Of a stretch of 33,481 nucleotides of DNA, positions 2,420 through 29,427 are shown piece after piece (the stretch's first letter is position 1; every line of letters begins with the position of its first letter). The stretch covers positions 1-33,481 of the forward strand of contig CALZGT010000001.1 of the NCBI GenBank assembly GCA_945787235.1, given 5' to 3'. This DNA comes from an uncultured Prevotellaceae bacterium (GTDB lineage: Bacteria > Bacteroidota > Bacteroidia > Bacteroidales > Bacteroidaceae). The notes under the pieces are model-generated. The model saw only the letters and a list, made by a program, of their open reading frames with translations. It ran no database searches and was not told the origin of the DNA. The translations under genes and the position numbers were made by a program.

Positions 2420-2442
2420 AATGCTTTTGTTTTAGTGGTTGT

Positions 2443-2582
2443 CCAGAGAGGCTGGGGTGGCTAGGGATTTTTAGTTGTTTTAGTTTTTCTAGTTGTTCTA
2501 GTTAAACTAGTTTTTCTAGTTTTTCTAGCTATTCTAGTTAAACTAGTTCTTCTAGTTTTTCTAGTTCTCCAAGCCTCTCTGG
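2443..2582. repeat. 9-bp-periodic CTAG-core tandem array (about 12 units) bracketed by an 11-bp perfect inverted repeat, in the susC-susD spacer
   Basis: CTAG starts at 2461, 2489, 2498, 2507, 2516, 2525, 2534, 2543, 2552 and 2561, with degenerate TTAG at 2471 and 2480. A 36-bp higher-order duplication covers 2498-2533 and 2534-2569 (32/36 identical). Inverted repeat ccagagaggct (2443-2453) pairs with agcctctctgg (2572-2582). Confidence 0.9.
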
Positions 2583-2589
2583 TTTTTGA

Positions 2590-5500: not shown

Positions 5501-6003
5501 TCAGTCTCCACGGTGATGCTGCTGGACTGGTCTATCTGCTTGCCGCTGCGGCTGGTGATGGTGGTGCCATCGGTGTAGTAGCCGCGCAACTGGGCACTGA
5601 TGAGGCTTGCGTCCTGGCCTGTCTTGCCCTTGATGGCTAACTGCAGGGGCTGGTAGTCGGGGGCATAGACATAGAGGCTTGTCGTGAAGGTAGGTACGGA
5701 GAGCTTGTAGCTACCGTCCTCCTCGGTCAGACAAGACCAGCGTTCACCGCCCAAGGCCTGTACGCGTACACCGCCCATGGGGTCGCCGGTGGCATTGTCG
5801 GTGATGCGACCGCTCACCTCCATCATCTCATATTTCTTTTCTTCCTTCGCTTTCTGTGCCTTGCGCTTGTCATAGGCGACGCCACTGTTCTCCGTGTTGT
5901 CGTCCTGAGCCATGGCGGGCAGCACGCCTACGCTGGAAAGCATAGCCATGCACAGACCATACTGGAAGGTCTTGTGCAGGAGTCTTTTTGTTGTATCTTT
6001 CAT
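2590..6003 (-). CDS. SusC/RagA-family TonB-dependent outer-membrane transporter (1137 aa)
   Basis: ATG at 6001-6003. Signal peptide ends in PAMAQDD. Carboxypeptidase-regulatory-like N-domain (VSGRITDNATGDPMGGVRVQA...EDGSYKL). Plug motifs TIRGVNSINANAQPLIVLDGNII and NATALYGAKGANGVIIIKTKRG. SusC Ca-binding-like motif GDVRFVDQNGDGVIDDND. No STN domain. Confidence 0.93.
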   Translation of the reverse strand: MKDTTKRLLHKTFQYGLCMAMLSSVGVLPAMAQDDNTENSGVAYDKRKAQKAKEEKKYEMMEVSGRITDNATGDPMGGVRVQALGGERWSCLTEEDGSYKLSVPTFTTSLYVYAPDYQPLQLAIKGKTGQDASLISAQLRGYYTDGTTITSRSGKQIDQSSSITVETEIENHLAGDVRSTSRSGMLGQGSYLTIRGVNSINANAQPLIVLDGNIIDPEYERTSLHEGFYNNILSGLDPENVESVEVLKNATALYGAKGANGVIIIKTKRGRSMATKINVRIFGGMEFVPKKLDVMNGNQYRTYLGELASTVKDFREQNWSNTDNVNTAFLNDNPNYYYNVFHNNTDWQKDMYHNTFVQNYKINVEGGDEIGMYSLSLGYTKGDGTQKGNDYSRLNLRFNTDIKITDKITTALDVAYNQTAYNVLDNGWSENYDMQNIGSTNVLGLISAPMLSPYAYYMDENNNNQLSLSNEYAGKYASKSSTTWIQNPFKFPKYMGINEALRNPYWIVRNGEGKNKNYAELTQININVAPKYQITKQFSIQDRFNYQLNRNNEKYFLPINGTTLYELTDLGNITSVLKSQFTKETTVNNDLTLEWKNKYGAHHIDVMGGWRYNNYSYSYSYIRGYNNENDKLPNISKNMQFVNYGGTKDNWIDMTYYLDATYNYANRYFAQFTLSSEASSKFGDNTKDGLHIGGVSWGIFPSLQLGWVLSNEKWFKTNKNVNYLKLTAGVDQSGNDDLDYYAARTYWESQRVTENTVGLYLKNIENSTIQWETTTKYNVALEGSFLNNRLHAGLDLFWHKTDNMLTIKDLSYISGMSQYWTNEGAMTNRGVEANLNGIIINKKDWKWEVGATLGHYKNEVTKMPAANQITLTDASGNVTGRLNGYVSSVYGDKNILTAVGYAAGSFYGWQTNGVLSTDAEASTAGAQGYLKYPTGLAENPYVNFQAGDVRFVDQNGDGVIDDNDKVVIGNPNPDLYGNIYTSLSWKNLRLDVNFKYSLGNDIYNYQRSILEGGNTTYNQTTAMTNRWTYEGQRTSIPKVCYLDSDDWRNNERMSDRWIEDGSYLKLKNVRLTYTVPFSNSWLQGLKVWAEGNNLLTLTKYLGTDPEMSARNSTLYQGIDNGLVPRGRSFNIGLSINL

Positions 6004-6036: not shown

Positions 6037-7974
6037 TTACTCTGTGGGGGCTTCTGCAGGGTCCTTGGCCACCATGATGATACGGTCGATACAGAGGTTG
6101 TTGGCGAATTTCTTGCCGGGATAGTTCTTGTCCGTACCTTTTCGTTCACTGGATGAACTGTTGGTTCCCAACTCCAGTACAGGCCAGCTGTAGCGCAGGT
6201 TCTTGTAACTGTAGGGGAAGGTGAAGTCCTTGAACAGCCAGATGGTATCTACCTTCAGTCCGTCATATATCACATTGTCCGCCTTGGTAAGGTTCTTCTT
6301 GTCGTTGGTAGCACCCTTGGAGGAACTGTTGTTGTTGCAGTAGTACAGGGTAGCCGTGATACGATGGCACAGTGTGTCGCCCTCGATGGTGTCGCTACTG
6401 GTCTTGTAGAAGTCGGGGACGCAGACTACACCGATGTCATAGGTGCCGCTCATCACCTCGCTTTCGCGGTTTTCACCGTCGGTGCCGAGGAGCTTGAAGA
6501 GGAACTTGATGGAGGTACCATCACCTGTGGGACGGAGTTCATAGAAATTGTTGTAGCTTACGGTACCTACCGTATCTACCCAGTCCTTGGCCACGGCGTT
6601 GCTGAAGGAGTAAGGCTGCGTGCTGCCGCTGAAACTCTGCGAGTCGTACCAGCAAGCCCATCCAATCTCGATGTTCAGGTTGGGCTGGTAGAGCTTCCTC
6701 GGGAAGTTCCAATTGTCGGTCATCACGCCGATACCATTACTCATCTTTATCTGCTTCTTGCCTGCCCAGAGACTCGTCTTGAGCCACTCGTTGTCTGTGC
6801 GGAGGGTATCACCGAAGGTGTTCAGGAGATACTCTATCTCACCGTCACCGGCTGCAATCAGTTCCTCGGTGTTCCAAAGAGGAGCTGAGGTGCTGCGCTT
6901 GGGCTGTCTGCGGGCATTGAACACGGTGGGAGAGATGATGTCCATGTTGATGCTCTGGTCGGTCAGGGAGTCCATCATGTCCTCAGTAATCTCACGGGTG
7001 GCATCCACGTGGCTGTCGCCCTTGTCGCTATCCACATAGTAGTTGGCGTACTTGTAGAGGGGCTTCAGACGGTTGTAGGCTGCCTCCCAGGCGGCATCCG
7101 TGGGAACTATCATCACGAAATCAGAGTCCTCACCCTCGATGTTGGCACCGAAGCTCTCCATGTAGGTCAGGTTCTTGTCTGAGTTGGTCGTAGTGAGGCG
7201 CTTGGTGCTGAAGAACATCTGGTTGGTGTTCGTATAGGCACTATCTACATAGGTGGGGTTGCCGTTGGCATCGGGATTACCCTCGATACTGTTGTACTCG
7301 TTGAAGTAGGTCGTATCGGTGTCCAGAATGTATGCATGATAGCGTGACACGCTGTTCTCGTTGGCATTGTAGCTGTCCTTGAGGTATTCGTACAGGTTGT
7401 ACTTGAAGGGCAGGTTCTCTGCCAGTGTGTGCAGGGTACCGTTGCTGGCCTCGATGTTCTTCTGCTTGATGGCTATCTTCTGCATCGTACCGTTCTTCTT
7501 GTCCAGTTCCAGGCGTTTGCCGTTGATCATCTGCAGGGTGTCGAGCCCCTCACCGATGACGCTGTAGCGCCACAAGGATACGGTGTTGGCCATCAGCTGC
7601 TGGTGAACACCATAGGGATTGGTTTCGAGCATCGATTCCCACTTGGCCACCTCAGCCTCTGTGAGTGCATCGTTCTCGGGGGCAAAGACCGTCATCAGCT
7701 GGGTGCCGCTGAGCATGTCCTTGTAGGTATAGGGCTTTCCTGTCTTGGGATTCGTCAGGGGATGTACCTGATCCTTGTAGTAGGTGGTCTTCTCTGCCAG
7801 AGCTGCATAGCGGCTCAGGTTCGGATTGGCCTTGATGCGCTCCCAGAGCGTTTCGGTGGCAGAGGTGCCTTCCGTAGGATTGTAGTGCTCGTCCCAGGTG
7901 TCGGTACATGAAGCACAGAGCACGAGGGCAGTGGCACCCAATCCCAGTTTTATGTTATTGATGATTCTTTTCAT
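6037..7974 (-). CDS. Surface lipoprotein with an N-terminal fasciclin (FAS1) domain and a roughly 450-aa uncharacterised C-terminal region
   Basis: Lipoprotein signal ...ALVLCASC followed by TDTWDE, where the acidic residues after Cys suggest surface export. FAS1 H1-like motif LMTVFAPENDAL and H2-like motif SNGTLHTLAENLPF. Confidence 0.75.
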   Translation of the reverse strand: MKRIINNIKLGLGATALVLCASCTDTWDEHYNPTEGTSATETLWERIKANPNLSRYAALAEKTTYYKDQVHPLTNPKTGKPYTYKDMLSGTQLMTVFAPENDALTEAEVAKWESMLETNPYGVHQQLMANTVSLWRYSVIGEGLDTLQMINGKRLELDKKNGTMQKIAIKQKNIEASNGTLHTLAENLPFKYNLYEYLKDSYNANENSVSRYHAYILDTDTTYFNEYNSIEGNPDANGNPTYVDSAYTNTNQMFFSTKRLTTTNSDKNLTYMESFGANIEGEDSDFVMIVPTDAAWEAAYNRLKPLYKYANYYVDSDKGDSHVDATREITEDMMDSLTDQSINMDIISPTVFNARRQPKRSTSAPLWNTEELIAAGDGEIEYLLNTFGDTLRTDNEWLKTSLWAGKKQIKMSNGIGVMTDNWNFPRKLYQPNLNIEIGWACWYDSQSFSGSTQPYSFSNAVAKDWVDTVGTVSYNNFYELRPTGDGTSIKFLFKLLGTDGENRESEVMSGTYDIGVVCVPDFYKTSSDTIEGDTLCHRITATLYYCNNNSSSKGATNDKKNLTKADNVIYDGLKVDTIWLFKDFTFPYSYKNLRYSWPVLELGTNSSSSERKGTDKNYPGKKFANNLCIDRIIMVAKDPAEAPTE

Positions 7975-8012
7975 ATCGTTTGTTGTTTGGTCGTTTTCAA
8001 CTATAAAAACAC

Positions 8013-10142
8013 TTACCAGATGTCCTCGGGGGTCATGGGGTTGTCATAAACCTCCTTGGCGCAGTACTCGATGTAGTCCATGTAGAACTGCTTGTTCTTG
8101 TCAGAGAGCACGGTCTTGAACTTCAGGTAATAGGTCTCGTCGGGATTCATCTCCTGACGTACGATGATACGACGGGTGGTGGTCTTCTCGGCACGAGCCG
8201 TCACCGTACCGCTGCCGATGCAGTAGTTCTCTGCACCCTTCATGAACCCGTTGTTACGCATCTTCTTGTCGTTCTCAGCGTTGAGGTCATCATCCGTGGG
8301 ACTGTCGGCCGTCCAGCCAAGAAGTTCGTGGGTACCACCGATGCGGAGATCAAGAGGAATACCTACGGCAGGCATCCTGTTCTTGTCAGAGCCGAAATAA
8401 ACTTGGCACATACCGCGCTGACCTGAGTTGTTCTGTACGGCATAACGGATTTCATAGATACCCTTCATGGGTACGGGAGGCAGACGGAAAATCATCTCGT
8501 AACTGCCTACGATGTTCAATTCGTCACCCTGCCAGTTGTTCCAATAGCGGTTGTAACCACCCAGATAGTAAAAGAGGGTGCCATCCATGATATCTACATC
8601 CTCCAGATAGCGGTACTTGCTGGTCTCGGGTATTCCGACTACGACTGCCTTGACGCGGTTGTCACGGATGTCGTTGTTCATGAACTCGGGGAAGAAGCTG
8701 GACACGTCAAAGCGGAGACGCTGCTTCTGGAAGTTCTCACGGGTAGCCTCATCGTAGGCCAGCACCTCGTTGATGGGGTAGATGTAGGCATTGACGGGGT
8801 TCTCGTACTCCGTGGTGTTCACCTGGATTCCTTCCTTGTCGGCATCGCATGACAGCTCGTGGTAGGTACCGCGGCGCCCGTTGTCCAGTACGGGGAAACG
8901 GTTGATGTAGATACCTGCAGGGGCTCCCTTGCCTCCTTCGTAGAGTTTCATCAGACGGCGCTTGCCCATCGTGGTGTGGAGCTCCCAGGTAGGAATGGTA
9001 TAGGGGTTGGAAGAGGGGTTGTAGCGATAGCCCTTCTCGTTGTAGTGGATGACGAGCTTGTTGGTAGGCAACTTCACGGGCAGGATGTGATAGGTCACAA
9101 ACTGGTTGAGCACGTTCTCGGGGTCGTTGTACTTGCCGTTGTCCTTGGCATTGGGGTACAGGTTCTGGTTCACTACCCAGTCCTTGATGTCCTCTACGGT
9201 GATTTCCGTGGCAGGCTTGCCGATCTTCTTCTCCCATACGTCATTGGTCTCGGCGAAGATGGTGTAACCGTAGTAGCGGTGTTCGGGCAGGAAGTTGTCG
9301 TTGGGCTCCGTGGGATGCTTGGGCAGCTGGGCTACCTCCTCGTTGAGGTACATCTGCTCCCATACCTCATCCTTCACCTTGCTCAGCGTGTCGAAGAGTC
9401 CGCAGGCTTCAATCATCTTGGCTGTAACGAGGAAACGTTCGTCCTTCAGGTCGATGTAGTTCTTCAGGATGTCGGCCACGCTCTCGTTGGAGGGAGCCAC
9501 TACCTGGTGCATCTGATGGATGCAACCATTGATGGCCACGATGTCGCGGTTCTTCAGGTCGATGAGGCTTCCATCCGTAATCTCACCCGTCTTCTTGTCC
9601 TTCTTTCCGTTGACATAGAGGGAGTCGGGGTCTTTGCCGAAGACCACCGTCAGCTTGCGGTCGTAGAGGTTGCTGATGAGCAACTCCTCGCCGTCCTTGA
9701 ACGAACTGGTCTGGTAGGCCTCGTTGTTGTCCTTGCTGTCAATGATACTGTTGAAGACGATGACCTTGCGGATGGAGTCCAGCGTTTCCTGGCTCTGGAA
9801 ACCTTCCCAGGTAGGCTCTGTGATGAGACCCTTGCTGCAAAGGCTGTCCAGGTAGGTCTGGATGGCCTTGTTGGTGGGGGCGAATACGGTGAAGTTACCG
9901 CGGGCACCCATCAACTGCAGTACCGTGGACTGCGAACGTGAACTGATCTTTACCTCACCCAACAGTCTGTAGTATTCGCTGTAGGTCGTGTCGTGTGATG
10001 ACAGGTAACTGCTGACCGTATATTGGGTAAAGGTATAGCGGTCGGACATGTCGATGTCCTCCTTGCAACTCTGGGTCATAGCAAGTCCCAGGACTCCCAT
10101 GAACAGCAGTGCGTATTTTTTCATTTTACTGATTTTTCTCAT
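8013..10142 (-). CDS. Surface lipoprotein with two FAS1 (fasciclin) domains and a C-terminal beta-sandwich-like region
   Basis: Signal ...GLAMTQSC followed by KEDIDMSD. FAS1 motifs FTVFAPTNKAIQTYL with INGCIHQMHQVVAPS, and YTIFAETNDVWEKK with AYIYPINEVLAYD. The true start could be the internal MKKYALLF at 10124. Confidence 0.75.
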   Translation of the reverse strand: MRKISKMKKYALLFMGVLGLAMTQSCKEDIDMSDRYTFTQYTVSSYLSSHDTTYSEYYRLLGEVKISSRSQSTVLQLMGARGNFTVFAPTNKAIQTYLDSLCSKGLITEPTWEGFQSQETLDSIRKVIVFNSIIDSKDNNEAYQTSSFKDGEELLISNLYDRKLTVVFGKDPDSLYVNGKKDKKTGEITDGSLIDLKNRDIVAINGCIHQMHQVVAPSNESVADILKNYIDLKDERFLVTAKMIEACGLFDTLSKVKDEVWEQMYLNEEVAQLPKHPTEPNDNFLPEHRYYGYTIFAETNDVWEKKIGKPATEITVEDIKDWVVNQNLYPNAKDNGKYNDPENVLNQFVTYHILPVKLPTNKLVIHYNEKGYRYNPSSNPYTIPTWELHTTMGKRRLMKLYEGGKGAPAGIYINRFPVLDNGRRGTYHELSCDADKEGIQVNTTEYENPVNAYIYPINEVLAYDEATRENFQKQRLRFDVSSFFPEFMNNDIRDNRVKAVVVGIPETSKYRYLEDVDIMDGTLFYYLGGYNRYWNNWQGDELNIVGSYEMIFRLPPVPMKGIYEIRYAVQNNSGQRGMCQVYFGSDKNRMPAVGIPLDLRIGGTHELLGWTADSPTDDDLNAENDKKMRNNGFMKGAENYCIGSGTVTARAEKTTTRRIIVRQEMNPDETYYLKFKTVLSDKNKQFYMDYIEYCAKEVYDNPMTPEDIW

Positions 10143-10161: not shown

Positions 10162-12225
10162 TTAGTCATACTGAGACTTGTTCCATACAGGGTTCTGCTC
10201 CAGGTGCTGCACACCATTGGCATCCTTGCTGGCCTGAATCTCCTTATAATAAATAAGGTTGTACAATCCGTAGCGGTTCTTCATGTGGTTGCGCAGCGAA
10301 GCTACCTGTCCACTCTGCAGGGTATTTGACATGAAGGTTTCGAGCATCAGCTTTACACCTGCGGCACCGTTGCCGATAGGACGTGCCTCGGTGTATTCGC
10401 GTACATCCTTCGTGCCATCCATGCCACCGGCGTGACGTTCTGCAAAGCGTACGAGGTCGAACCAACGCTTGCCTTCTGCCAGCAGTTCTATCTGTCGCTC
10501 GTTCAGTACGGCTACCTCCACGGGCTGAATGCTCTTGTCTGGCGTCTTGGGGGCGCAGATGTTACCAGCGGTCTTGGCTATCGTGGCACTGGTGAAGTAG
10601 GCATAGCCATCGTTGTTCATCACATCGGTGGCAGGTACCTCGGGATGGGTGGCATCGGGGCAGTACCAGCGGCGGTGGATGGCATTGACGATGCGGAGGG
10701 CATCCTTGGCGTAGTCATCAGTTGCCTTATTACTCAGGCAAGCCAATGCCTCGGCCTTCTGCAGCATGACATCGCTCATGCGGTAGATGATCCAGTTGCG
10801 GTATGCCTGTTCGTCTGTACTGGTGCTTATCTTCAGACCATTGTCCTCGACCTTGCCGTTCTCGGGGGTGCTTACGCTCGCATCTCTCCACTTGAAGCAG
10901 TAGGCTCCAGGGAGGCTCGTGGTGTAGCTCGTGCTACCCAGTCTGGAAACGTTGCCCATGCAGCTGAACCAGGCACGGGAGTCGTACAGACGGGAACTTC
11001 CGCTGTAGATAGCATCAATGGCAGACTCGCTGATGGCCAGATGTACTTTGTCACCATATCCCCACTGCGCTGTAGCCACTTCATTCTTACGGCTGTCGCT
11101 GCTGTTGAACTGGAGTTCGAAGATGCTCTCGTCACTGTTGCCATTGGTGAAAATCTCATTGTAGGCCGTGAGACTCACGCCACCGCCGTCCTTGAAGTAC
11201 TCATAACGGTTCTTGTACATATCGCAATACTGAAGGCCGTAGTTTTCAGTCTCACTTCGGCTCGAACCATAGTTGCTGTTGTTCAGGATGGTCTGCTCGT
11301 TGAGCTTCTGGAGGGAGAGGTCGGCGTAGTGGATACACATATTGTAGTCACCCTCTACGCTGTGAGGTACGAACATGCTGTCGTTGCGCTCCACAAGGTT
11401 GGCAATGTTACCCTTGTTGATACCGCTTTTCACCCAGACGGTATCCATCTCGATACCACGTCCCTGGTGCAGGGAGGCACGCCACAGGTACATGTCGCTC
11501 AGTAGGGCATAGATGGCCGTGTTGGTCATAAGTCCCTTCGTGTCCTTGAGGGAGGTGTAGCGGTTGGCCGCCTGTCCCTTCACACGCTCCACGTCGATGA
11601 TAAGGGAGTCGAGGACCACGAGCTGGTTCGTAGCATTGAAGTATTCCACTTCCGTATCCTTGTTGATGACCTTCGTGGTGTAGGGAATGTCCTTGAAGGA
11701 ACGGAGCAGGTAGAAATAGTTCAGGGCGCGCAGGGCGGTAATCTCTGCCCTCATCTGGCTCCACTCACTGGAAGTGAACTGCTTGTCGTTGGCAAGTACG
11801 TCAGCTCCATGGTAGAGAATCTTGTTGCAGTAGTTGATGGTTGTGTAGAAACCGCTCCAGTCGAAATACGTATTGGCAGAGTCGCGTTCCAGACGGCCCT
11901 CACGCAGTTCGTTGTAGAAATTCTTGGTACTGGTGCTTTGGTCGGCGGTGGAGAGGACGTAGGTGTCAGAGCGAAGGTCGCCCCAGAGCACCATCTTCTC
12001 CAGCGTGCCGCACATGCTGGTATAGGCAGCATAGCGTACACCCTCAAGGTCATTCTTGTCTTCCCAGAAATTCTCTTCCACAATCTGAGTCTGGGGGTAG
12101 ATGGTCAACCAATCCTGGCAGGAGGTCAGGGCTGCCAAAGCTACAGCCCCCATTCCAACCTTCCCGAGGGAGAAGCCGTGGAATGTCTTGCTGACCATTC
12201 TTGAGATTATGTTGTGTATTCTCAT
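10162..12225 (-). CDS. SusD/RagB-family outer-membrane nutrient-binding lipoprotein (687 aa)
   Basis: ATG at 12223-12225. Lipobox ALAALTSC followed by QD. SusD-type motifs ENFWEDKNDLEGVRYAAY and ELLAEGKRWFDLVRF. Lies downstream of a SusC-like gene. An alternative start at 12198 is possible. Confidence 0.9.
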   Translation of the reverse strand: MRIHNIISRMVSKTFHGFSLGKVGMGAVALAALTSCQDWLTIYPQTQIVEENFWEDKNDLEGVRYAAYTSMCGTLEKMVLWGDLRSDTYVLSTADQSTSTKNFYNELREGRLERDSANTYFDWSGFYTTINYCNKILYHGADVLANDKQFTSSEWSQMRAEITALRALNYFYLLRSFKDIPYTTKVINKDTEVEYFNATNQLVVLDSLIIDVERVKGQAANRYTSLKDTKGLMTNTAIYALLSDMYLWRASLHQGRGIEMDTVWVKSGINKGNIANLVERNDSMFVPHSVEGDYNMCIHYADLSLQKLNEQTILNNSNYGSSRSETENYGLQYCDMYKNRYEYFKDGGGVSLTAYNEIFTNGNSDESIFELQFNSSDSRKNEVATAQWGYGDKVHLAISESAIDAIYSGSSRLYDSRAWFSCMGNVSRLGSTSYTTSLPGAYCFKWRDASVSTPENGKVEDNGLKISTSTDEQAYRNWIIYRMSDVMLQKAEALACLSNKATDDYAKDALRIVNAIHRRWYCPDATHPEVPATDVMNNDGYAYFTSATIAKTAGNICAPKTPDKSIQPVEVAVLNERQIELLAEGKRWFDLVRFAERHAGGMDGTKDVREYTEARPIGNGAAGVKLMLETFMSNTLQSGQVASLRNHMKNRYGLYNLIYYKEIQASKDANGVQHLEQNPVWNKSQYD

Positions 12226-12249
12226 ATTTGTTGTTTTTATGGTTTTGTT

Positions 12250-12351
12250 CTAGTGGGGCTAGGGTAACTCGTGAATGACGTTAGTTACGTTACTATCGTT
12301 AATGATGTCCTAACGTTCTTAGCGTTCTTATCGTTAATCTAGCCGATCTAG
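12250..12351. repeat. 9-bp-periodic array with CGTT/ACGT-core units flanked by CTAG units, in the second susC-susD spacer
   Basis: CTAG at 12250 and 12259. CGTT at 12279, 12288, 12297, 12314, 12323 and 12332. CTAG at 12339 and 12348. Spacing is 9 bp with one 1-nt phase slip. A weak flanking inverted repeat pairs ggctag (12257-12262) with ctagcc (12339-12344). Confidence 0.8.
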
Positions 12352-12362
12352 TTCTCTTTGTC

Positions 12363-15300
12363 TTAGAAGCCGATGTTCACGCTGCAGGTGAAAGACTTGG
12401 CACGAGGTGTCTTGCTGTAGTCCGTGGCCACGGCAAAACCTCCGATACCTACTTCAGGATCCACACCCGTGTACTTGGTCCAGCAGAACACGTTGTTGAG
12501 GGTGGCAGAGAGGTAGAGGGTCTTGATGCCGGCCTTCTTCATCCACTGCTTCTTGTTGTCGAACGTGTACTTCATCTGGATGTACTGCAGACGGAGGTAG
12601 TCACCATTCTCTACGTAGCGGTCGCTGGGCAGTGAGTTGTAGCTCTTGTAACCGTTCTGTGTCGTGAGGGCGCGGGGAATCTCCGTGATGTCACCGTTCT
12701 TGCGCCAGCGCCATGTGGTGGCATAGCTCTGGTTGGTGTTGTCCAGCATGCTCTCGTAGTTGGCACGTGCCATGTTGACAATCTGGTTGCCGATGCGGAA
12801 GTTGAATGAAGCGTTCAGCTCGAACTTGCCGTAGTAGAGGTTTACACCGAAACCACCATAGCACTTGGGGTTGGAGTTGCCCAGATATACCATATCGTAG
12901 CGGTCAATGTTACCATCGTGGTTGATGTCCTCATAGATGGCATCACCACCCTGGAACTGGTAGCGGCTACCCTCGGTGTAGCAGTAGTACATGGGCAGGG
13001 GGTTACCTTTCTGGTCTGTCAGCATGTTGCCCTGGGCATCGAAGGCGATGGGGCAGGTGCTGTTTTCACCACGACGGGCTGCAGCAGCTGCCGTGTTGAT
13101 GGGGTTGCCCTTCTTGTCGTAACCCGTACCCAGGCGGGCTGCCTCATCCGCACTGGAGAAGGTGTTGCCGTTGGCATCCACCTCGGCATATCCGTAGGCA
13201 TTCCATGAGGTGTTGGTATAACCGTTGTGGTCGTAGTCGTAGCGATATACACCCTTTGACCTCAGACCGTAGATGGAACCGAGGGCGTTGTTGATCTGCA
13301 CGCGCTGGTTGAAGGAGAGGTTGGTGGGCTCCCAGGTCTCAGAACCGTTCAGGTTCTCCAGGATGAGCTCGTTCATCTCCTCCACGGTGTTGAAGTTCTG
13401 AGATACGTTACCACGCAGCTTCATTGAGAACTTGCCTGCCTTGGCAAACTTGCCCGTGTTGAAGTTGAGCTCCCATCCCTTGTTGCGCATCCTACCAGCG
13501 TTGATCCAGTTCAGGTTGTTGAAACCGTTGGCAGAGGGGATTCGGAGACCCGTCATGAGCAGGTCGGTGGTCTTCTTGTCATACACCTCGAACTCGAAGT
13601 TCAGCAGGTCATCGAGCAGGCCCAGGTTGGCACCGATGTTCCATTGTGCCGTCTTCTCCCACTTCAGGTTGGTCAGGGAGAGGTTATCGGGACGAACTAC
13701 GGTGTGACCGTTGTAGTAACCGGCAGAGCTGTACTTGTTGTACTGGTTGCCGCCGGCACCGCCCGTGTTACCTGTGATACCCCATGAACCACGTACACCG
13801 AGCATGCTGATGTACTTGCGGGTCTTCTCCATGAATTTCTCATCGATGACGTTCCAGCGTCCACCGAAGCTGGGGAAGGTACCATACTTGTGGCCGCGAC
13901 CGAAGGCTGTACGGCCATCGGTACGAACGGTGACATCCACAGAGTACTTGCTCTTATAAGAATAATGCAGCTGCTCCATGAAAGAATGGCTGCGCCACTC
14001 GCTGTTGCTGGCACCGGCTCCCTTCATCAGGGCCACCACGGTCGGATCGGTGATACCGTTGGGTACGTTCCAGAGTTCCAGGTTCTGGTTGGAAGAAGCA
14101 CCTGTTTCCATCTCGAAGCGGAACATACCGGAGAGGCTGTGGTCAGAATTCTTGAAATGAGAATAGTAGCGAAGGTCATGACGCGTGGTGAATCCCAGTG
14201 ACTTGTATTCGCTGTTGGACACCAGGTTGCGCTCGTTGTTGGCCAGGTTGGCACTGTTGTCACCACCCCATACCCATGACATGGGCTTCAGGTCGGCGGG
14301 ACAGAACTTGTCATCACTGGTGTTGTAGATGTTCAGCTGCACGTCACCCACGTAGTCCAGACGATGGGAGTCGTTGTCCTTGCCCCAGAGCTTGTAGGTC
14401 ACGTCGAACTGGGGAGTCAGGTTGTACTGCTTCATCAGCCACCAGGCACCATAGGCACGTGCTACGGGGTTACCATTCTTGAAGCGGTCACGCAACTCGT
14501 AGCTGGTGTAGTGTCCGTCGTTGGTGAAGCCCGTCGTGTTGCTGCTGCTGAGGGTAGCGGCGATGGGCAGCATGTTGAAGTAGTTACCCGTCAGGCGACC
14601 CGTCTCGTCGTATTCATAGATGCTCATGTTGGGCATGGCACCATAGGCGCGGGCCATGATGTCGTTGCCGTAGTTCTTGTGGTTGTTGGTGAAGGTCATG
14701 TTCACCGTGGCACGGAACTGGATGCGGTCACTCACGTTGTAGTCGATGACGGTAGATTCCGTGAACTGGTCCATCTTCTGGCCAATGACAGAACCCATAC
14801 TCTTGTTGTAACCGGCGCCGATGCGGAAGGTTGCCTTGTCACCACCACCCGTCAGGTTGATATAGTAGCGGTGCTCCTTACCAAACTGAGTCACGGCATC
14901 AATCCAGTCGGTATTGTGCGTGTAGTGGTTGTAGATGTAGGGCATTTCCGTGTTGTAGTCCAACTCAGGAATGGAGGTTGCCGTCTGGTTGGGGTTGAAG
15001 TAAGCCTCCTTGAGCATCATGGTGTAACCGTCACCATTCAGCATTTTGTATCCTTCGGGCTGCCAGGTACCGTTGAACTTGTAGGAGAAGTTCACCTGGG
15101 TAGGACCACGGCGACCACGGCGCAACTTGATTTCGATGACACCGTTGGAACCCTTTACACCCCACTTGGCTGCTGAGGCGGCATCCTTCAGTACCGTGAT
15201 GCTCTCGATGTCCTCCGTGTTCACGTTCAGCAGGGTAGAGAACTGCTCCTCGTTGTCCATGTCCTCGAAGTTGATGGTCTGTGCATCGTCGGGAAGTTCG

Positions 15301-15896
15301 AAGATGTGGTCATTTACAACGATAAGCGGCTGGGCATTACCGTTGATGGTCGTGGTACCGCGCAGACGCATCGTAGTACCTGAACCCAGGTTACCGGAGT
15401 TGGCCACGATGTCCAGACCGGCAATCTGACCCTGCAGTGCCTGATCTACAGACTCGAAGGCCAGACCCTCCATGTCATCCATGCTGAAGTTGGAGACAGC
15501 TCCGGCAAACTCACGTGCAGGAATGTCCAGACCCGTGGTGGGAGCCTTCTTCTTGGCGGTGACGTTCACCACCTTCATCTCCTTCGTGTTGTCCTGCAGA
15601 CGGATCTTGAACACCGTCTTGTTTCCGATGACCTGTACCCACTTGCGGTATCCGATATAAGATACCTCCAGGTTGTTCTTGGGGTCTTTGATGTTCATCG
15701 TAAAGTTACCGTTGAAGTCAGTGACCTGGCTGTTCACGATACGGTTGTTCTTATCGACCTCTTTTACGTTGGCGCCTACTACCACGTCGATATCATCGCT
15801 AACGGTACCAGAGATACGTCTTGTCTGTGCGCTGGTCGTCAGGGTCACCATGAGGCTGACGATTCCGACCCATAATAATTTCATATATCTATTCAT
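12363..15896 (-). CDS. SusC/RagA-family TonB-dependent outer-membrane transporter (1177 aa)
   Basis: ATG at 15894-15896. Signal peptide ends in TLTTSAQ. Carboxypeptidase-regulatory-like domain (ISGTVSDD...NGNFTMNI). Plug motifs RLRGTTTINGNAQPLIVVND and GVKGSNGVIEIKLRRGR. Motif GGDAIYEDINHDGNIDRYD. C-terminal aromatic residue (...SVNIGF). No STN domain. Confidence 0.93.
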   Translation of the reverse strand: MNRYMKLLWVGIVSLMVTLTTSAQTRRISGTVSDDIDVVVGANVKEVDKNNRIVNSQVTDFNGNFTMNIKDPKNNLEVSYIGYRKWVQVIGNKTVFKIRLQDNTKEMKVVNVTAKKKAPTTGLDIPAREFAGAVSNFSMDDMEGLAFESVDQALQGQIAGLDIVANSGNLGSGTTMRLRGTTTINGNAQPLIVVNDHIFELPDDAQTINFEDMDNEEQFSTLLNVNTEDIESITVLKDAASAAKWGVKGSNGVIEIKLRRGRRGPTQVNFSYKFNGTWQPEGYKMLNGDGYTMMLKEAYFNPNQTATSIPELDYNTEMPYIYNHYTHNTDWIDAVTQFGKEHRYYINLTGGGDKATFRIGAGYNKSMGSVIGQKMDQFTESTVIDYNVSDRIQFRATVNMTFTNNHKNYGNDIMARAYGAMPNMSIYEYDETGRLTGNYFNMLPIAATLSSSNTTGFTNDGHYTSYELRDRFKNGNPVARAYGAWWLMKQYNLTPQFDVTYKLWGKDNDSHRLDYVGDVQLNIYNTSDDKFCPADLKPMSWVWGGDNSANLANNERNLVSNSEYKSLGFTTRHDLRYYSHFKNSDHSLSGMFRFEMETGASSNQNLELWNVPNGITDPTVVALMKGAGASNSEWRSHSFMEQLHYSYKSKYSVDVTVRTDGRTAFGRGHKYGTFPSFGGRWNVIDEKFMEKTRKYISMLGVRGSWGITGNTGGAGGNQYNKYSSAGYYNGHTVVRPDNLSLTNLKWEKTAQWNIGANLGLLDDLLNFEFEVYDKKTTDLLMTGLRIPSANGFNNLNWINAGRMRNKGWELNFNTGKFAKAGKFSMKLRGNVSQNFNTVEEMNELILENLNGSETWEPTNLSFNQRVQINNALGSIYGLRSKGVYRYDYDHNGYTNTSWNAYGYAEVDANGNTFSSADEAARLGTGYDKKGNPINTAAAAARRGENSTCPIAFDAQGNMLTDQKGNPLPMYYCYTEGSRYQFQGGDAIYEDINHDGNIDRYDMVYLGNSNPKCYGGFGVNLYYGKFELNASFNFRIGNQIVNMARANYESMLDNTNQSYATTWRWRKNGDITEIPRALTTQNGYKSYNSLPSDRYVENGDYLRLQYIQMKYTFDNKKQWMKKAGIKTLYLSATLNNVFCWTKYTGVDPEVGIGGFAVATDYSKTPRAKSFTCSVNIGF

Positions 15897-15907: not shown

Positions 15908-18889
15908 TTAATGGATTTCGAATCTCTTTATGTATTCACGAGCCTTTGCCTCGTCAGCCCAGGTGCTGTCATGACGGCCGCCTTCCAGTTTTACATGGTT
16001 CAGCGTGTGGGGAATCTGGTGGATTACGGTGAATGAAGATGCCGTAATCTTGATGCCGTTCATGGAGTTCTGTCCCGTGGGGTTCTTGCTCACTACCATG
16101 TCACGTGCCAGCACGTTGTAGCGACCTTCGATGTCCTGCCATTCTCCGTCGTTGACATCCTTGACAGAGAGCGTGCCGTTCTGACGCTTCACGTTGAGCT
16201 TCACGAAGAGGCCCTTCTTGTTGTCGTAGCTTGAACTTACATAGTCAGTAGCATCGAAGTTGCTCTTATCGACAAATACACTGTTGTCGGCAAAGTGGTA
16301 GCGCACGAAGTTGGTCAGATAGGTAATCTGGGCCTGCAGCTTGAGGCTGTCAGCCGTGGTCAGCGCAGGGTTGCCCTCCTCGTCCAGACAACTGTTGTAG
16401 TAGTCCGTGATGCTCTCCCAGGTGGGAAGTCCCTGGGCTACAGCCTCGTCCATGGCCTCATTGGTAGGAACGAAGAGCGTGTAGTGGTAGTTGTTGTAGA
16501 ACTGCACGTTGTAGTCCACGGCATCACCATTGTTCACAAAGAGCATGTACTTCTTCATTTCTGCCTTCTGCTCATTGGTGGTCAGGTTCTTGGTGTCAAC
16601 CAAACCGCAGGACTTGATGATGTTCTCGTCGGGCGTACAGCAGTACTCATAGAACTTGGTATAATAGGGGCTGTCATACTGTCCTCCGTGGGTCAGGTTG
16701 TTATAGACACTCTTGGAAGCGGGGACGATGGGGCTGTCGAGGATGTAGGTAGTACCGTTGTTCATCATGTTTTCGTCTGTGACATTGTTGCACTGGATAC
16801 CTTTGATGTCAGCATATACATTCTTGTTGTCGGGAGAAATCTCACCCACGATACCGGCATCCTCGTTCTCGAGCTGGAATCCACCCTGTACCTTTACCAC
16901 CTTACCATTTTCGCGCGTAACTTTAATAGGTGAATAGTTCTTGGCGATGTAGTACTCGTCCACGTCGCTGTCAATCTCATCCATGCCATCCAGTACGATG
17001 GTGTGGCTCTCCAGAATATCCTTCAGACGGTTCGTAACCTCATCGTTTGAAATGGACTCCAGACCGTAGCTCTTTCCGATGGTACCCGTGGAGGCGTTGT
17101 ATTCATACTTGTCCACCTTGATGGGGAAAGAACCGTTCTTGTAGGAGAGGCTCAACACGCGGGGCTTCTTACTGGTGAAGCTGACGGGGTCATAGTAGTA
17201 AGCCATACCCTTGTCGCTCGGAATCAGGAAGACGAAGCGGCTCTGCATGGCCTTGAGGTAAGCATAATAGTTGAGCTTCATGTAGTCGGTGGCAGAAGTA
17301 GATCCATTATATACGGCCCAGCGCATTACCAGGTTGGTACCGCTGATGTAGGCGGGAGCCGCTACTGAGGTGTAGTCGGCAGGACCATATACCTTGTCAG
17401 TGACGTAGATGACACCGTTGTTGGCCAGCATGGAACGGGTGATGTGCTCCTGGTCGTCAGCATAGAAAATCTGCTCCTGGGCATCGTCTCTCAGCGTGGT
17501 CATCTTGCTGGGAACAGAACCCTTGAAACTGGGGAACATGATGATGTTGAGCAAAGAACGCAGTGTACTCAGGGGAATCTGGTCAATCTGCTTGAAGAGT
17601 TCCTCCTGGGTGGTCGGAGCTACGTAGGGAATCTCGTCGGGAGTGCCCTCCTTCAGGTAGTATGTACGGATGAGCTGCCATCCACCGCCACCTTCCGAGA
17701 AGTACTTCCACATGGTCTCGTCATCGGGAACATACATGGCTGCCATGTCGTATTCTGCGCTGCGGTCCTCGTTGTAGAAGGCGTTCCATCCCGGGTCGAA
17801 CTTCAGCGTGACATCGGTAGATTGAGCGTCGCGGAAGGTTTCTCCGAAGGGATCCCTGTTCAGAGAACCATGTCCCCAGCTTAGGTCGCTGAAGTAACGC
17901 TTGGTGAAGATAGAGTCTTTCCACTCGATGCCGCGTGAAGCCATGATATCGGTGTAGGCACGGGTCACGGTACGGTTGTAGAAAGGTACTGACCAGCGGT
18001 CGAGCATGTGGCTGAAGATGTTTGTCTGTCCATTGGTGCGGAGCAATTCAGCCATGTTGGGGAGGGGCGTGATGACCTTGGAAGTCTTGTTGACGTAACC
18101 ATTCTCGCAGACACCATCCTTCTCCTGCAGGAGAGCATCATATATGTGAACGTCCTCCGTGTTACGCTCCTCGTTCATGAAAGTAGCGAAATCCTCATCT
18201 GTAATCTGGTTCTTCTTCATGTGCTCGTTGGTAAAATGCACCATCATGCTGGCTGAAGAGTCGTTGACCAGATAGAGACCGTTACCTCCGTTCTCGGTAC
18301 GGAAGCGCCACCAGTAGTCTTTTTCCTCGTTGCCGACGTTGTAGTTGGTGGGCAGGGAGTTGCCATCCAGGTAGGTGATGGAGTCGGTGGTCTCCACGTC
18401 GGTGTAGCGTCGCATGAACTCGCCGCGTGTCATCGAACCATTCTCCATGTTGCTGGCCAAGTTCTCCATGACGATGGCGTTGTTCAGCATACTGGTGTGT
18501 ATCAACAGTTTCTTCTGTGATACGGAGAGGTTCTCGTAACTTGTGGCGGTGTGCCAGGGGTCACTCTCGGGGAGTGTGGCATTCTTCTTGAAGAACGCTT
18601 CCCAAGCCTCGTCGTCAGCTACAAACACGGTCTTTGAACCTGTGCGGGAAAGCACCTCGGTAAGAGGTCGTGCGTTGGCTGGATTCACGTCTTTGTCGCC
18701 CAGGAGGCGGATGTAGTACTTGTAGTTACCCTTGGACTCCAGGCTCTCGTAGATGCTGGAATTCAGGAAACCAGGCTTTTCATCGTCCAGTCTGTACTCA
18801 TCCTTGCATGAAGACGTGATGCCGTACGCAGCAAGCAAGACCAGCATCCAGGATGCTGACTTACCCATTTTGCTTAAACGGTTTCTCAT
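15908..18889 (-). CDS. Large surface lipoprotein with at least three FAS1 (fasciclin) domains (993 aa)
   Basis: Lipobox AAYGITSSC followed by KDEYRLDDE. FAS1-like motifs KTVFVADDEAWEAF, MYVPDDETMWKYF with NGVIYVTDKVYGP, and TLFVPTNEAMDEAV with FTVIHQIPHTL. It is the first gene of the SusC/D block. Confidence 0.75.
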   Translation of the reverse strand: MRNRLSKMGKSASWMLVLLAAYGITSSCKDEYRLDDEKPGFLNSSIYESLESKGNYKYYIRLLGDKDVNPANARPLTEVLSRTGSKTVFVADDEAWEAFFKKNATLPESDPWHTATSYENLSVSQKKLLIHTSMLNNAIVMENLASNMENGSMTRGEFMRRYTDVETTDSITYLDGNSLPTNYNVGNEEKDYWWRFRTENGGNGLYLVNDSSASMMVHFTNEHMKKNQITDEDFATFMNEERNTEDVHIYDALLQEKDGVCENGYVNKTSKVITPLPNMAELLRTNGQTNIFSHMLDRWSVPFYNRTVTRAYTDIMASRGIEWKDSIFTKRYFSDLSWGHGSLNRDPFGETFRDAQSTDVTLKFDPGWNAFYNEDRSAEYDMAAMYVPDDETMWKYFSEGGGGWQLIRTYYLKEGTPDEIPYVAPTTQEELFKQIDQIPLSTLRSLLNIIMFPSFKGSVPSKMTTLRDDAQEQIFYADDQEHITRSMLANNGVIYVTDKVYGPADYTSVAAPAYISGTNLVMRWAVYNGSTSATDYMKLNYYAYLKAMQSRFVFLIPSDKGMAYYYDPVSFTSKKPRVLSLSYKNGSFPIKVDKYEYNASTGTIGKSYGLESISNDEVTNRLKDILESHTIVLDGMDEIDSDVDEYYIAKNYSPIKVTRENGKVVKVQGGFQLENEDAGIVGEISPDNKNVYADIKGIQCNNVTDENMMNNGTTYILDSPIVPASKSVYNNLTHGGQYDSPYYTKFYEYCCTPDENIIKSCGLVDTKNLTTNEQKAEMKKYMLFVNNGDAVDYNVQFYNNYHYTLFVPTNEAMDEAVAQGLPTWESITDYYNSCLDEEGNPALTTADSLKLQAQITYLTNFVRYHFADNSVFVDKSNFDATDYVSSSYDNKKGLFVKLNVKRQNGTLSVKDVNDGEWQDIEGRYNVLARDMVVSKNPTGQNSMNGIKITASSFTVIHQIPHTLNHVKLEGGRHDSTWADEAKAREYIKRFEIH

Positions 18890-19010
18890 ACAATTTGAAT
18901 TAGGTTGTTTATTATTTGGTTAATTGTTTTTCGGTATCATTGCATAGTCTCTTTGCCGGCAGGGCGCAGTTCACCCTTTTGCTGTTTGCATACGTTCGTG
19001 ATATTAAGGG

Positions 19011-19018
19011 CAAATTTA
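19011..19018 (-). promoter_or_regulatory. Candidate Bacteroidetes -7 promoter box (TAnnTTTG) for the FAS1/SusC/SusD operon
   Basis: The minus strand reads TAAATTTG. A TTTG (plus-strand caaa at 19041-19044) lies about 22 nt upstream as a possible -33 element. This implies a 5' leader of roughly 120 nt before the ATG at 18889. Based on a motif match only. Confidence 0.4.
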
Positions 19019-19149
19019 GAAAAAAATATCAATACCATCACAAATAACATATAAAAATCCATAAAAAATGCGCAAAAAGTACAAAAAAGCTGCCTGGCGA
19101 TTCCAAATAAGGCATTGAACCCCCAATTATTGTTACTTTTTTAACGCAA

Positions 19150-19198
19150 GAACCGGTCGCAGGCTGTGGTGTGTTTCACCATGCTCTGCGACCGGTTC
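19150..19198 (-). terminator. 13-bp-stem hairpin downstream of the T9SS glycoside hydrolase gene; candidate intrinsic terminator
   Basis: gaaccggtcgcag (19150-19162) is the exact reverse complement of ctgcgaccggttc (19186-19198), with a 23-nt loop. It sits 41 nt after the stop at 19239. There is no clear U-tract. Confidence 0.5.
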
Positions 19199-19238
19199 CA
19201 GTCGTATTGTTCTTCCTTGTAGCTTGCCCAGTGTGGAG

Positions 19239-27623: not shown

Positions 27624-28586
27624 CTACTTTGGTTGGCTCATCTCCTTGTCGATGTATGACATGATGCCCTGAAGGTCATCGGGGTGAAACCAGTGAATGT
27701 CCGGGTCTTTGGCGAACCATGTCATCTGTTTCTTGGCATATACGCGTGTATTCTTCTTTATCCTTTCAAAGGCTTCTTCCAACGTGGTTATCTTTCCCTT
27801 TATCCTCAGAGTCCTCCGTTCCTCTTCTGGTTTGTCCTTGTGGTCAAGGTACTCGAAGATTTCCTTGTAGCCTACCGTATTGAGGGCGTTGAGGTGACGA
27901 TGCTGAAAGTGGCGCATGGCCTCTTCCAGTAGCCCCTCCTCCCTCATCCTATCGACCCGTTGGTTGATACGTGCGAAGAGCTCTTCCCGAGAGCGTTGCA
28001 GTCCAACCTTGATGATGTGGAAAGGGCGTTCCTTGAGGTTCTGCGTGCGGAAGGAAGAGTACGTCCTTCCCGAGGTGTGACAGACCTCCAGGGCATGTAC
28101 CACGCGCCGTGTGTTGTGCCTGTCAACCTGCTCGTAATAGGCAGGGTCGAGTCTTTTCAGTTCTGCCAGCAGACTTTCCAGCCCCTCTTTCTTCAACCGT
28201 TCCTTCATCCATTGACGTGTAGCGTCTCCAATGGTAGGAATATCGTCGATGCCCTTGCACACCGCATCAATGTACATCATGCTGCCTCCCGAGAGGATGA
28301 CGGTGTCCAGTCCCTTTTCCTCGAAGAGTTTCGTCAGGCACTTCATCGCTTCCTCCTCGTAACGTGCTGCGCTATAATAATCATCCAGTGCCAGAGTTCC
28401 CACGAAGTGGTGCTCTGCTCTGGCCAACTGTGCTGAGGTGGGTGCTGCGGTACCTATCTTGAGGTCACGGAACAATTGACGGCTGTCACAATTAAGGATG
28501 GGACAGCCGTAGTACTCGGCAAGCAGCAAACTCAATTCCGTTTTGCCGATACCTGTGGGGCCAAGGAGAACGAGAAGAGTTTTCAA
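27624..28586 (-). CDS. miaA: tRNA dimethylallyltransferase
   Basis: P-loop [13 protein letters not shown] at the extreme N-terminus and IPPT-family similarity throughout. The start codon is TTG (caa at 28584-28586), immediately preceded by an in-frame TAA, so no upstream ATG is available. Confidence 0.88.
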
Positions 28587-28616
28587 TTAACAATGAATAA
28601 TTAACAATTAATAATG

Positions 28617-29337: not shown

Positions 29338-29377
29338 AGTATTATCCTTTCCCCCTCCCTCCCCATCGTGGGGGAAG

Positions 29378-29412
29378 GGGCTGCCTTTCCTGTGGGGGAA
29401 TGGGTGCAGCCC
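29378..29412 (-). terminator. 7-bp GC-rich hairpin after the lpxA stop, within a G/C-tract-rich spacer
   Basis: gggctgc (29378-29384) pairs with gcagccc (29406-29412), with a 21-nt loop. No U-tract. Function uncertain. Confidence 0.25.
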
Positions 29413-29427
29413 TTACTGTAATCCTTA

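Follow-up and report, generated by a model that had tools for sequence, protein, structure and literature searches.

Intergenic direct repeats of the heptamer TAACTGA occur in Beggiatoaceae, in cyanobacteria and in five Bacteroidetes, mostly in the forward orientation and a few to tens of nucleotides upstream of start codons; their function is unresolved, and S1, Csp or CsrA has been put forward as a binder that acts post-transcriptionally (MacGregor, 2015; PMC4679880). This system is the closest precedent for the element described here, a tandem array with a 9-bp period in the 137-bp spacer between a susC-like and a susD-like gene of an uncultured Prevotellaceae bacterium. The window, i.e., the whole stretch of DNA that was analyzed, comprises 33,481 nucleotides (GenBank assembly GCA_945787235.1, contig CALZGT010000001.1, positions 1 to 33,481). 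The array under study is designated array 2, and the other 9-bp arrays of the same species arrays 1, 3 and 4 (Table 1). Array 2 belongs to a family of 9-bp arrays with members outside polysaccharide-utilization loci (PULs); it is hypervariable between strains, was gained recently and keeps a constrained core. It is probably a minisatellite of variant repeats, one of a lineage-specific family, in which slippage alters the copy number; it is likely co-transcribed as an A-rich leader extension and is no PUL-specific operator; this reading is held with reasonable, not high, confidence.

The short tandemly repeated repetitive (STRR) sequences of cyanobacteria and the heptamer repeats of Nostoc are lineage-specific short tandem families located in intergenic DNA near starts or promoters, with a suspected but unresolved regulatory role. 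Tandem binding sites also form operators and centromeres, such as the 8-bp met boxes of MetJ (ACGT core), the CTAG operators of TrpR, the 7-bp heptads of the omega repressor and the 4-bp boxes of ParG with their AT spacers. For 9-bp CTAG or AACG arrays in Bacteroidales, no description was found in the literature that was searched.

Array 2 consists of 12 units in one 9-nt register, which on the mRNA strand read as two CTAG units, three AACGnnAnn units, an 8-nt unit, three further AACGnnAnn units, the edge unit CACGAGTTA and two CTAG units. The mRNA-strand reading of the spacer opens with GACAAAGAG, before the 5′ CTAG pair, and the array ends 21 nt short of the susD ATG, with its A-rich strand as the sense strand. 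A preliminary description of this spacer had reported 9-bp periodicity, six CGTT-centered units reading AACGnnAnn on the mRNA, two CTAG units on each side and one 1-nt phase slip, and all of these are present. The six CGTT of the + strand correspond to six AACGnnA of the mRNA strand at offsets 27, 36, 45, 62, 71 and 80, and the array contains four CTAG, two per side. The slip, which lies in the 8-nt unit ACATCATT, is confined to the window allele, and the register is perfect in the other strains. The AACGTT and TACGTTA forms, said to be several, occur once each, and ACGT is found in only three units. The unit ACATCATT is probably AACGTCATT minus one A and with a G to A change, and the edge unit CACGAGTTA would be CACTAGTTA with a T to G change.

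Table 1. Parts of the array-2 spacer and the other 9-bp arrays of the species (window coordinates unless a contig is named)
Feature	Position	Strand	Remarks
Array 2: whole susC-susD spacer	12226..12362	-	Array under study; composite 9-nt-period array plus susD leader; lag-9 z = 6.5
5′ pair of CTAG units	12336..12353	-	AACTAGATC GGCTAGATT; same in every allele
AACGnnAnn block 1	12309..12335	-	AACGATAAG AACGCTAAG AACGTTAGG; strain-variable
8-nt degenerate unit	12301..12308	-	ACATCATT; sole phase slip, window allele only
AACGnnAnn block 2	12265..12300	-	AACGATAGT AACGTAACT AACGTCATT CACGAGTTA
3′ CTAG pair	12247..12264	-	CCCTAGCCC CACTAGAAC; conserved across the alleles and in both sister lineages (96% and 89%)
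A-rich susD leader	12226..12246	-	AAAACCATAAAAACAACAAAT, then ATG
Array 1: spacer of the other susC-susD gap	2420..2589	-	CTAG-core array 2468-2566; ~11 units; 36-bp higher-order repeat; z = 8.3
Array 3: PRiA4_ORF3-like gene to miaA	28631..28798	-	Outside any PUL; ~17 CTAG units; z = 11.5
Array 4: AACG-type	L461:9580-9633		AACGACAAT AACGAAATT repeated; ~1 kb past the window's right end

The periodicity of the spacer is statistically robust. The lag-9 autocorrelation is 0.55, lag 9 is the best lag, and this value was reached by none of 2000 dinucleotide-preserving shuffles. The presence of at least six CGTT in 137 bp has P = 1.5e-4, and four neighboring CGTT pairs spaced exactly 9 bp apart appeared in none of 20000 shuffles. 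A 9-bp period is no general trait of AT-rich intergenic DNA in this organism: it is absent from equally AT-rich spacers of the species that carry no array, namely window 18890-19238, window 29338-29427 and L461:7113-7274 (31% GC in the last). Tandem Repeats Finder reports only 2.4 copies in array 2 (12314-12335), because the units differ at four positions.

Comparison of strains revealed that array 2 changes rapidly. Five alleles occur in twelve same-species sequences (the window and 11 fetched contigs), in which the flanks differ by 0.3-0.9% (3.3 kb compared). The inner block reads AACGATAAG AACGCTAAG AACGTTAGG ACATCATT AACGATAGT AACGTAACT AACGTCATT in the window allele, AACGATAAG AACGTTAAG AACGTCATT AACGAAAGT AACGTAACT AACGTCATT in allele B, and AACGTTAAG AACGACA(G/A)T AACGACAAT AACGTTAAG AACGTCATT in alleles C and D, with allele E a mosaic of types B and D. 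The alleles thus differ by gain or loss of entire units and by some point changes, whereas the CTAG flanks and the leader are invariant over all five. Measured to the downstream ATG chosen by gene callers, the spacer is 164, 156 or 147 nt long.

The other arrays vary by entire units as well, e.g., one versus three copies of CTAGTCAGT. Array 1 has four alleles of 115-196 nt in five complete sequences; array 3 has five different alleles in five strains, with 14-20 CTAG, which differ mainly by local duplication or loss of identical adjacent units; and array 4 is 18 nt, or two units, shorter in other strains than in L461. Assemblies tend to break at these sites: L001 has an N-gap, and contigs L247, L248 and L229 end in or beside an array. 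Array 2 has the head-to-tail units and constant period of a minisatellite or variable-number tandem repeat (VNTR), apart from one slip of -1, and the copy-number polymorphism in unit steps among close strains (6-8 inner units). Its units, however, are not near-identical and homogenized: 12 are distinct, with four nearly free positions.

In the 12 distinct ACG-type units of the five alleles, positions 2-4 (ACG) are invariant, and A stands at position 1 in 10 units and at position 7 in 11. Changes number zero at ACG versus 5-7 at each of positions 5, 6, 8 and 9 (heterogeneity chi-square, P = 0.002). In array 3, 17 distinct CTAG units have free tails; for the core this tally is circular, the units having been parsed on CTAG, although no more than one CCAG-variant unit is present (in two alleles). 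Uniform neutral decay of a slipped motif does not explain an invariant core beside free tails. The sequences thus suggest two possibilities: either the core is required for re-amplification of a unit, slippage being anchored on it, or something binds the core. The earlier argument that more than slippage of one motif is involved is supported to this extent, although slippage clearly operates, as seen in the whole-unit differences between alleles. In the companion argument that periodicity and palindromy are what is maintained, the palindromy is not supported: the conserved core AACG(..A) is asymmetric, non-palindromic and always on one strand within an array.

CTAG, the core of the flanking units and of arrays 1 and 3, is the most avoided tetranucleotide of the window outside the three spacers. 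There it occurs twice, versus 47 expected from a maximal-order Markov model (ratio 0.04), whereas 31 CTAG lie inside the three spacers (521 bp); in the whole window, 30 of 33 are in clusters spaced 9 or 18 bp. GATC is depleted too (ratio 0.22). At the edges of arrays, units decay to CCAG, CTGG or CTAA. The depletion of CTAG is general in related gut Bacteroidales loci (pooled ratio 0.18, median 0.09), array-less lineages included. Restriction-modification or repair (Vsr-type) pressure may underlie the depletion of CTAG and GATC, or the word may be reserved for a binder. In the searchable literature, no description was found of CTAG packed into arrays and depleted elsewhere.

Orthologous junctions indicate when array 2 arose. 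The corresponding susC-susD junction measures 19 nt in both L004 and L466 and 23 nt in L465 (SusD identity 86%, 71% and 79%, respectively); all three are short and A-rich and have the same gene order. The 3′ part of the window's leader, AAAAACAACAAAT, is the counterpart of the 19-nt spacer of L004. As the array is missing from these three related lineages, array 2 is a recent and dispensable gain. In the clade of the window it occupies the middle of this otherwise short spacer, between the susC stop and the susD leader. In L006 (SusD 79%), an unrelated insert of 109 nt (L006:7202-7310), which contains a strong GC-rich hairpin, takes up the junction, and the junction seems to accept insertions repeatedly. 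Array 1, on the other hand, has a short counterpart, four copies of ACTAGAAAA, at the orthologous L006 junction, which indicates that some arrays persist across species.

The nearest sister lineages, L248 (96%) and L247 (89%), have AACTAGATA ATCTAGAAA ATCTAGCCC CACTAGAAC where the window has AACGTCATT CACGAGTTA CCCTAGCCC CACTAGAAC. By parsimony, these CTAG units suggest that a CTAG array is the older state and that the AACG units in its interior form a derived sub-family. Such a polarity would also fit the CTAG at both edges of array 2 and the edge unit CACGAGTTA, which is one T to G change away from a CTAG unit.

Arrays of this kind are not confined to PULs. The same-species sample covers ~43 kb, consisting of the window and same-species contigs reaching 10 kb past it, and contains four 9-bp arrays, three in the 33-kb window and one just past it; of the 10 spacers that are 60 nt or longer, 4 have such an array. 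All four sit at tail-to-head gene junctions. Two are outside PULs, and one of those is AACG-type. Array 3 reads CTAGTTAnn on the gene strand, the orientation opposite to that of array 1. Array 4 lies between a release-factor gene and a small membrane open reading frame (ORF) upstream of pyrF, and reaches 18 nt from the likely ATG of this ORF; gene callers fold it into the ORF. A look-alike is found at an unrelated locus in L229, another Bacteroidales metagenome-assembled genome (MAG), where 12 AACG-consensus units, three 9-mers of which are identical to array-2 units, lie between a - strand terminator and gltX, upstream of the latter, with CGTT on the gene strand and hence in the opposite orientation. 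With regard to a possible exchange of units between arrays, sharing of 9-mers is only marginally above the expectation for a degenerate consensus. The 9-nt architecture and the AAC phase, which the preliminary description had found in common between array 2 and the CTAG array of the other susC-susD spacer, are confirmed, whereas a position between susC and susD is no defining trait. As a refuting outcome, the preliminary description had named a 9-bp period that is common in the intergenic DNA of the organism. In the form of discrete arrays, present in 4 of 10 spacers and also at non-PUL junctions, it is common, which refutes a PUL-specific element and leaves the reality of the arrays intact.

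As to the properties of the spacer as RNA, no Rfam family matched the window at the gathering threshold, and a permissive search gave only a chance match to mir-67 (E = 0.85). No terminator-like site was found in 12100-12500, and a sigma-70-type scan, which does not cover Bacteroidetes promoters, found no promoter on the gene strand of the spacer. The whole spacer is predicted to fold with -22.5 kcal/mol (z = -3.5), its 5′ CTAG units pairing with the 3′ ones in a predicted 19-nt inverted repeat (74% complementary). The AACG interior is 41-43% A and has -8.4 kcal/mol for 71 nt, versus a genomic mean of -15.9; array 4 has 0 kcal/mol. The flanks of each array pair with each other, and the flanks of the three window arrays differ. 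Array 1 lies within a 14-nt inverted repeat (2443-2456 and 2569-2582; 93% complementary), the predicted RNA fold having z = -10; this repeat does not occur in the L006 ortholog of the spacer. In arrays 1, 2 and 4 and the L006 array, the A-rich strand is the sense strand, abuts the A-rich leader of the next gene and ends 14-55 nt from the start codon. In array 3 and the L229 array, the strand is reversed relative to the neighboring genes.

These features can be combined into a model in which array 2 began as a CTAG-core array and the inner AACGnnAnn units arose as a derived sub-family. Slipped-strand mispairing or unequal exchange, with the core common to the units as anchor, would shift the copy number in 9-bp steps. 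The array would be co-transcribed with susC and susD and would do no more than lengthen the susD leader by an A-rich, weakly structured stretch, which the CTAG units on either side would close with a weak stem. Through its length it may tune the expression of susD or the processing of the mRNA. That ACG and CTAG are strictly conserved beside free tails suggests that something reads the core, and this reader might be the slippage mechanism itself or, possibly, a nucleic-acid-binding factor.

Several points weigh against this model. Pure neutral slippage leaves both the unmutated core beside mutated tails and the persistence of CTAG arrays, in a genome in which CTAG is ~20-fold depleted elsewhere, unexplained. 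The polarity from CTAG to AACG rests on two sister contigs (L247 and L248) that start inside the array and thus show it in part. Co-transcription and an effect on susD are steps that we infer, as is the slippage mechanism. With array 3 and the L229 array in the opposite orientation, not every member can act purely as sense-strand RNA, and the sample of the species comprises only ~43 kb.

The alternative that survives best, although it is rather unlikely, is that the array works as a platform for RNA binding: AAC(G) or CUAG every 9 nt on the polycistronic mRNA, directly ahead of the A-rich leader, would recruit a single-strand RNA binder and set translation or processing of the downstream cistron. 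By analogy with the proposal made for the TAACTGA repeats, candidate binders would be ribosomal protein S1 or a cold-shock-type, RNA-recognition-motif (RRM) or KH protein. The A-rich sense strand of arrays 1, 2 and 4 and the L006 array at 14-55 nt from a start codon, the weak structure of the AACG parts, the location of all four arrays at tail-to-head junctions, and the conserved core with free tails are all consistent with such a role, as are the precedent, for which the same proposal was made (PMC4679880), and the CTAG arrays of phage contigs L072 and L083, which occupy several intercistronic gaps. The opposite strand orientation of array 3 and the L229 array speaks against it, the more so as the latter, located between a terminator and gltX, may not be transcribed. 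In addition, three related lineages that share the gene order do without the array, the number of units varies between strains without constraint, and no binding protein is known.

A broader, frankly speculative proposal would join the depletion of CTAG to the arrays. CTAG and its local derivative AACG would constitute a reserved word, purged elsewhere, and a lineage-specific nucleic-acid-binding protein would recognize a single core in every 9 nt and polymerize, on RNA or DNA, along the 9-nt-spaced arrays at tail-to-head junctions. The result would be a copy-number-tunable, genome-wide network that sets the relative expression of neighboring cistrons, including the SusC:SusD stoichiometry, and is shared by some phages. 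This is regarded as doubtful, slightly more so than an RNA-binding platform by itself.

Cooperative binding to DNA is less probable still. In such an array, a small protein (ribbon-helix-helix, TrpR-like or nucleoid-associated) would read one 4-bp core per 9 bp, in consecutive major grooves, and polymerize. A short conserved core, a free spacer and a strict period below one helical turn resemble the anatomy of operators and centromeres; the arrays are found in either orientation; the core is invariant; and 2 CTAG outside the arrays against 47 expected is what a reserved binding word would leave. However, the palindromic unit of an operator array is present in the CTAG units and absent from AACG..A, which is non-palindromic and lies on one strand per array, and the depletion of CTAG extends to array-less lineages of gut Bacteroidales. 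The array is intercistronic and has no recognizable promoter (a weak point, as the scan was of sigma-70 type only), its copy number is hypervariable, it is absent in close relatives, and no candidate protein has been identified.

The preliminary description leaned toward a cis-regulatory element specific to susC-susD, with a core matched to the PUL or its regulator. Both susC-susD spacers of the window do carry 9-bp arrays with different interiors, but AACG and CTAG arrays also lie between the PRiA4-like gene and miaA, between the release-factor gene and the small ORF, and ahead of gltX; the array is missing from orthologous PULs in which the genes follow in the same order, and the sister lineages have CTAG units at the same place. 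This reading is now very improbable. Duplication of genes as the origin of both spacers was also considered and is ruled out by the identity of only 24% between the two SusC proteins of the window, from which it follows that the two spacers are not homologous by descent.

Just as little credence is given to a mobile-element origin, in which the arrays would be footprints of repeated insertion and excision (9-bp target duplications at a CTAG target) or a landing pad for CTAG-targeting IS5-type elements, which would find no other targets in a genome poor in CTAG. A strict 9-bp step with a core regenerated by each duplication, the extreme concentration of CTAG in the arrays and the 14-nt inverted repeat around array 1 would suit this idea. 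However, no transposase or insertion-sequence remnant adjoins any array, differences between alleles resemble local unit duplications, and excision in bacteria rarely leaves both copies of the target. The array-1 repeat is not a dispersed terminal repeat such as that of a miniature inverted-repeat transposable element (MITE) or a repetitive extragenic palindrome (REP), having no other non-coding copy in the window; a MITE was rejected on this ground, and the 3′ motif shared between arrays, CCCTAGCCnCnC, is not significant.

A chance or compositional artifact, or a small Asn-rich leader peptide (AAC at every third codon) or SusC read-through, can be practically dismissed. In some alleles an open AAC frame does run through the AACG block, and a gene caller placed array 4 inside an ORF. 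However, no shuffle matches the periodicity, other AT-rich spacers are aperiodic, frames are inconsistent among arrays, and CTAG arrays hold in-frame TAG stops; the array-2 frame comes after TAG stops and lacks a standard start codon, and in the window allele it contains a frameshift and a TAA.

All genes of the window are on the - strand, and its G+C content is ~53%. The spacer of array 2 separates a SusC-like ORF with Plug and CarboxypepD_reg domains (12363-15896) from a SusD-like ORF (10162-12225), both part of a PUL that includes three large fasciclin-domain proteins, a second SusC/SusD pair (2590-6003 and 83-2419) and glycoside hydrolases. Fasciclin-domain proteins (window 6037-10142 and 15908-18889) are interleaved with the two very divergent SusC/SusD pairs. 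Housekeeping genes lie upstream (PBP1, miaA, lpxA, lpxC-fabZ, lpxD and pyrF), and identical or near-identical proteins are present in metagenome assemblies from the pig gut and from other guts. For susD, the start is ambiguous (window 12196-12225): the ATG at 12225 gives 687 aa and an ATG 27 nt downstream gives 678 aa. Gene callers on other contigs choose the latter, with which the spacer becomes 164 nt; the long-start protein of the window is not on record, and the 678-aa version was used.

In more distant Bacteroidales of gut and rumen, segments with a 9-bp period are few. A scan of 80 such loci (1.06 Mb; MiaA identity 55-62%) gave only six non-coding lag-9 segments, with different cores, e.g., CTATAG or GTTTAATAA. 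Two GTTTAATAA arrays in L453 (284-390 and 426-505) are inverted to each other and form a long palindrome of repeats. Heptamer arrays are many in the same 80 loci, TAACTGA-type among them: L417, L419, L431 and others among L379-L458 (rumen and human gut) have up to 5-6 per 20 kb, with units of (C)AGTTGA(C), GAGTTGA, AATTCCTC and TAACTGA type, and several adjoin a conserved CCGCATGG motif. GAGTTGA-type heptamers, abundant in Prevotella-like relatives, are also seen in the spacer between the small ORF and pyrF (L461:9871-10000), and a 7-bp/14-bp repeat (CAATTAA/AATTAACAATGAAT; window 28584-28615) adjoins array 3 just upstream of miaA.

Pattern scans were run for CTAG x5 with period 9 (viral contigs), for AACGNNANN x3 plus AACG (genome contigs) and for AACGNYARK (viral contigs). 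Among the matches listed, most were coding tripeptide repeats of actinobacteria, giant viruses and phages, and the informative loci were L229, L207, L246, L072 and L083. The phage contigs L072 and L083 (IMG/VR 3300045988; 49% GC) carry the CTAG-core 9-nt arrays GGCTAGATG and GACTAGACG and avoid CTAG elsewhere; PHROG annotation of the CTAG-array phage gave an amidase only. Some of these phage arrays read as tandem ATG-GGC-TAG mini-frames. In L246, another Bacteroidales MAG, two TGTGTAACGTTTGTAACGTTTGTAACG...TTTGACAAATA copies lie 1.7 kb apart (3440-3499 and 5136-5225), a pair that looks like a repeated operator-type site, not a minisatellite.

Compared with bacterial VNTRs with variant repeats, the arrays are alike in their head-to-tail units, whole-unit polymorphism, degenerate edges and local duplication of identical neighbors. 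Ordinary VNTRs, however, have neither the mix of invariant core and free positions nor the concentration at tail-to-head junctions. The present arrays are ordinary as VNTRs and notable for the core constraint and the concentration of CTAG. Even if they are only fast-evolving minisatellites, they remain useful as strain markers for this uncultured pig-gut member of the Bacteroidales, and they explain assembly breaks in PULs such as contig ends and N-gaps.

The operator and centromere arrays of MetJ, TrpR, omega repressor and ParG offer an analogy in their tandem sub-helical period, short core (CTAG or ACG(T)) and tolerant spacer. The present arrays differ in having period 9 and at most 20 copies, in being hypervariable and intercistronic, in the asymmetry of AACG, and in that no cognate protein is known. 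STRR sequences are likewise lineage-specific short tandem repeats scattered in intergenic DNA, but their units are near-identical; the present arrays differ from them in period and sequence and are without evidence of a promoter effect.

The TAACTGA repeats resemble the present arrays most closely. Both are short-period intergenic direct repeats, forward and near start codons, a placement seen in arrays 1, 2 and 4 and the L006 array and not in array 3 or the L229 array. In both, close relatives with the same neighborhood have shorter, repeat-free spacers, as in L004, L465 and L466 (19-23 nt), and contigs often end in arrays. The present arrays have period 9, not 7, and in place of a defined heptamer a 9-nt unit, AACGnnAnn or nnCTAGnnn, in which a conserved core of 4-5 nt is combined with four free positions, making the units non-identical; moreover, two cores (CTAG and AACG) coexist in one array, built on the most avoided tetranucleotide of the genome. 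If a factor reads this core, the unexplained TAACTGA and STRR arrays would have a counterpart in the Bacteroidales, and one that is tractable for testing, with natural alleles of 0, 6, 7 and 8 units between two well-understood genes whose stoichiometry matters.

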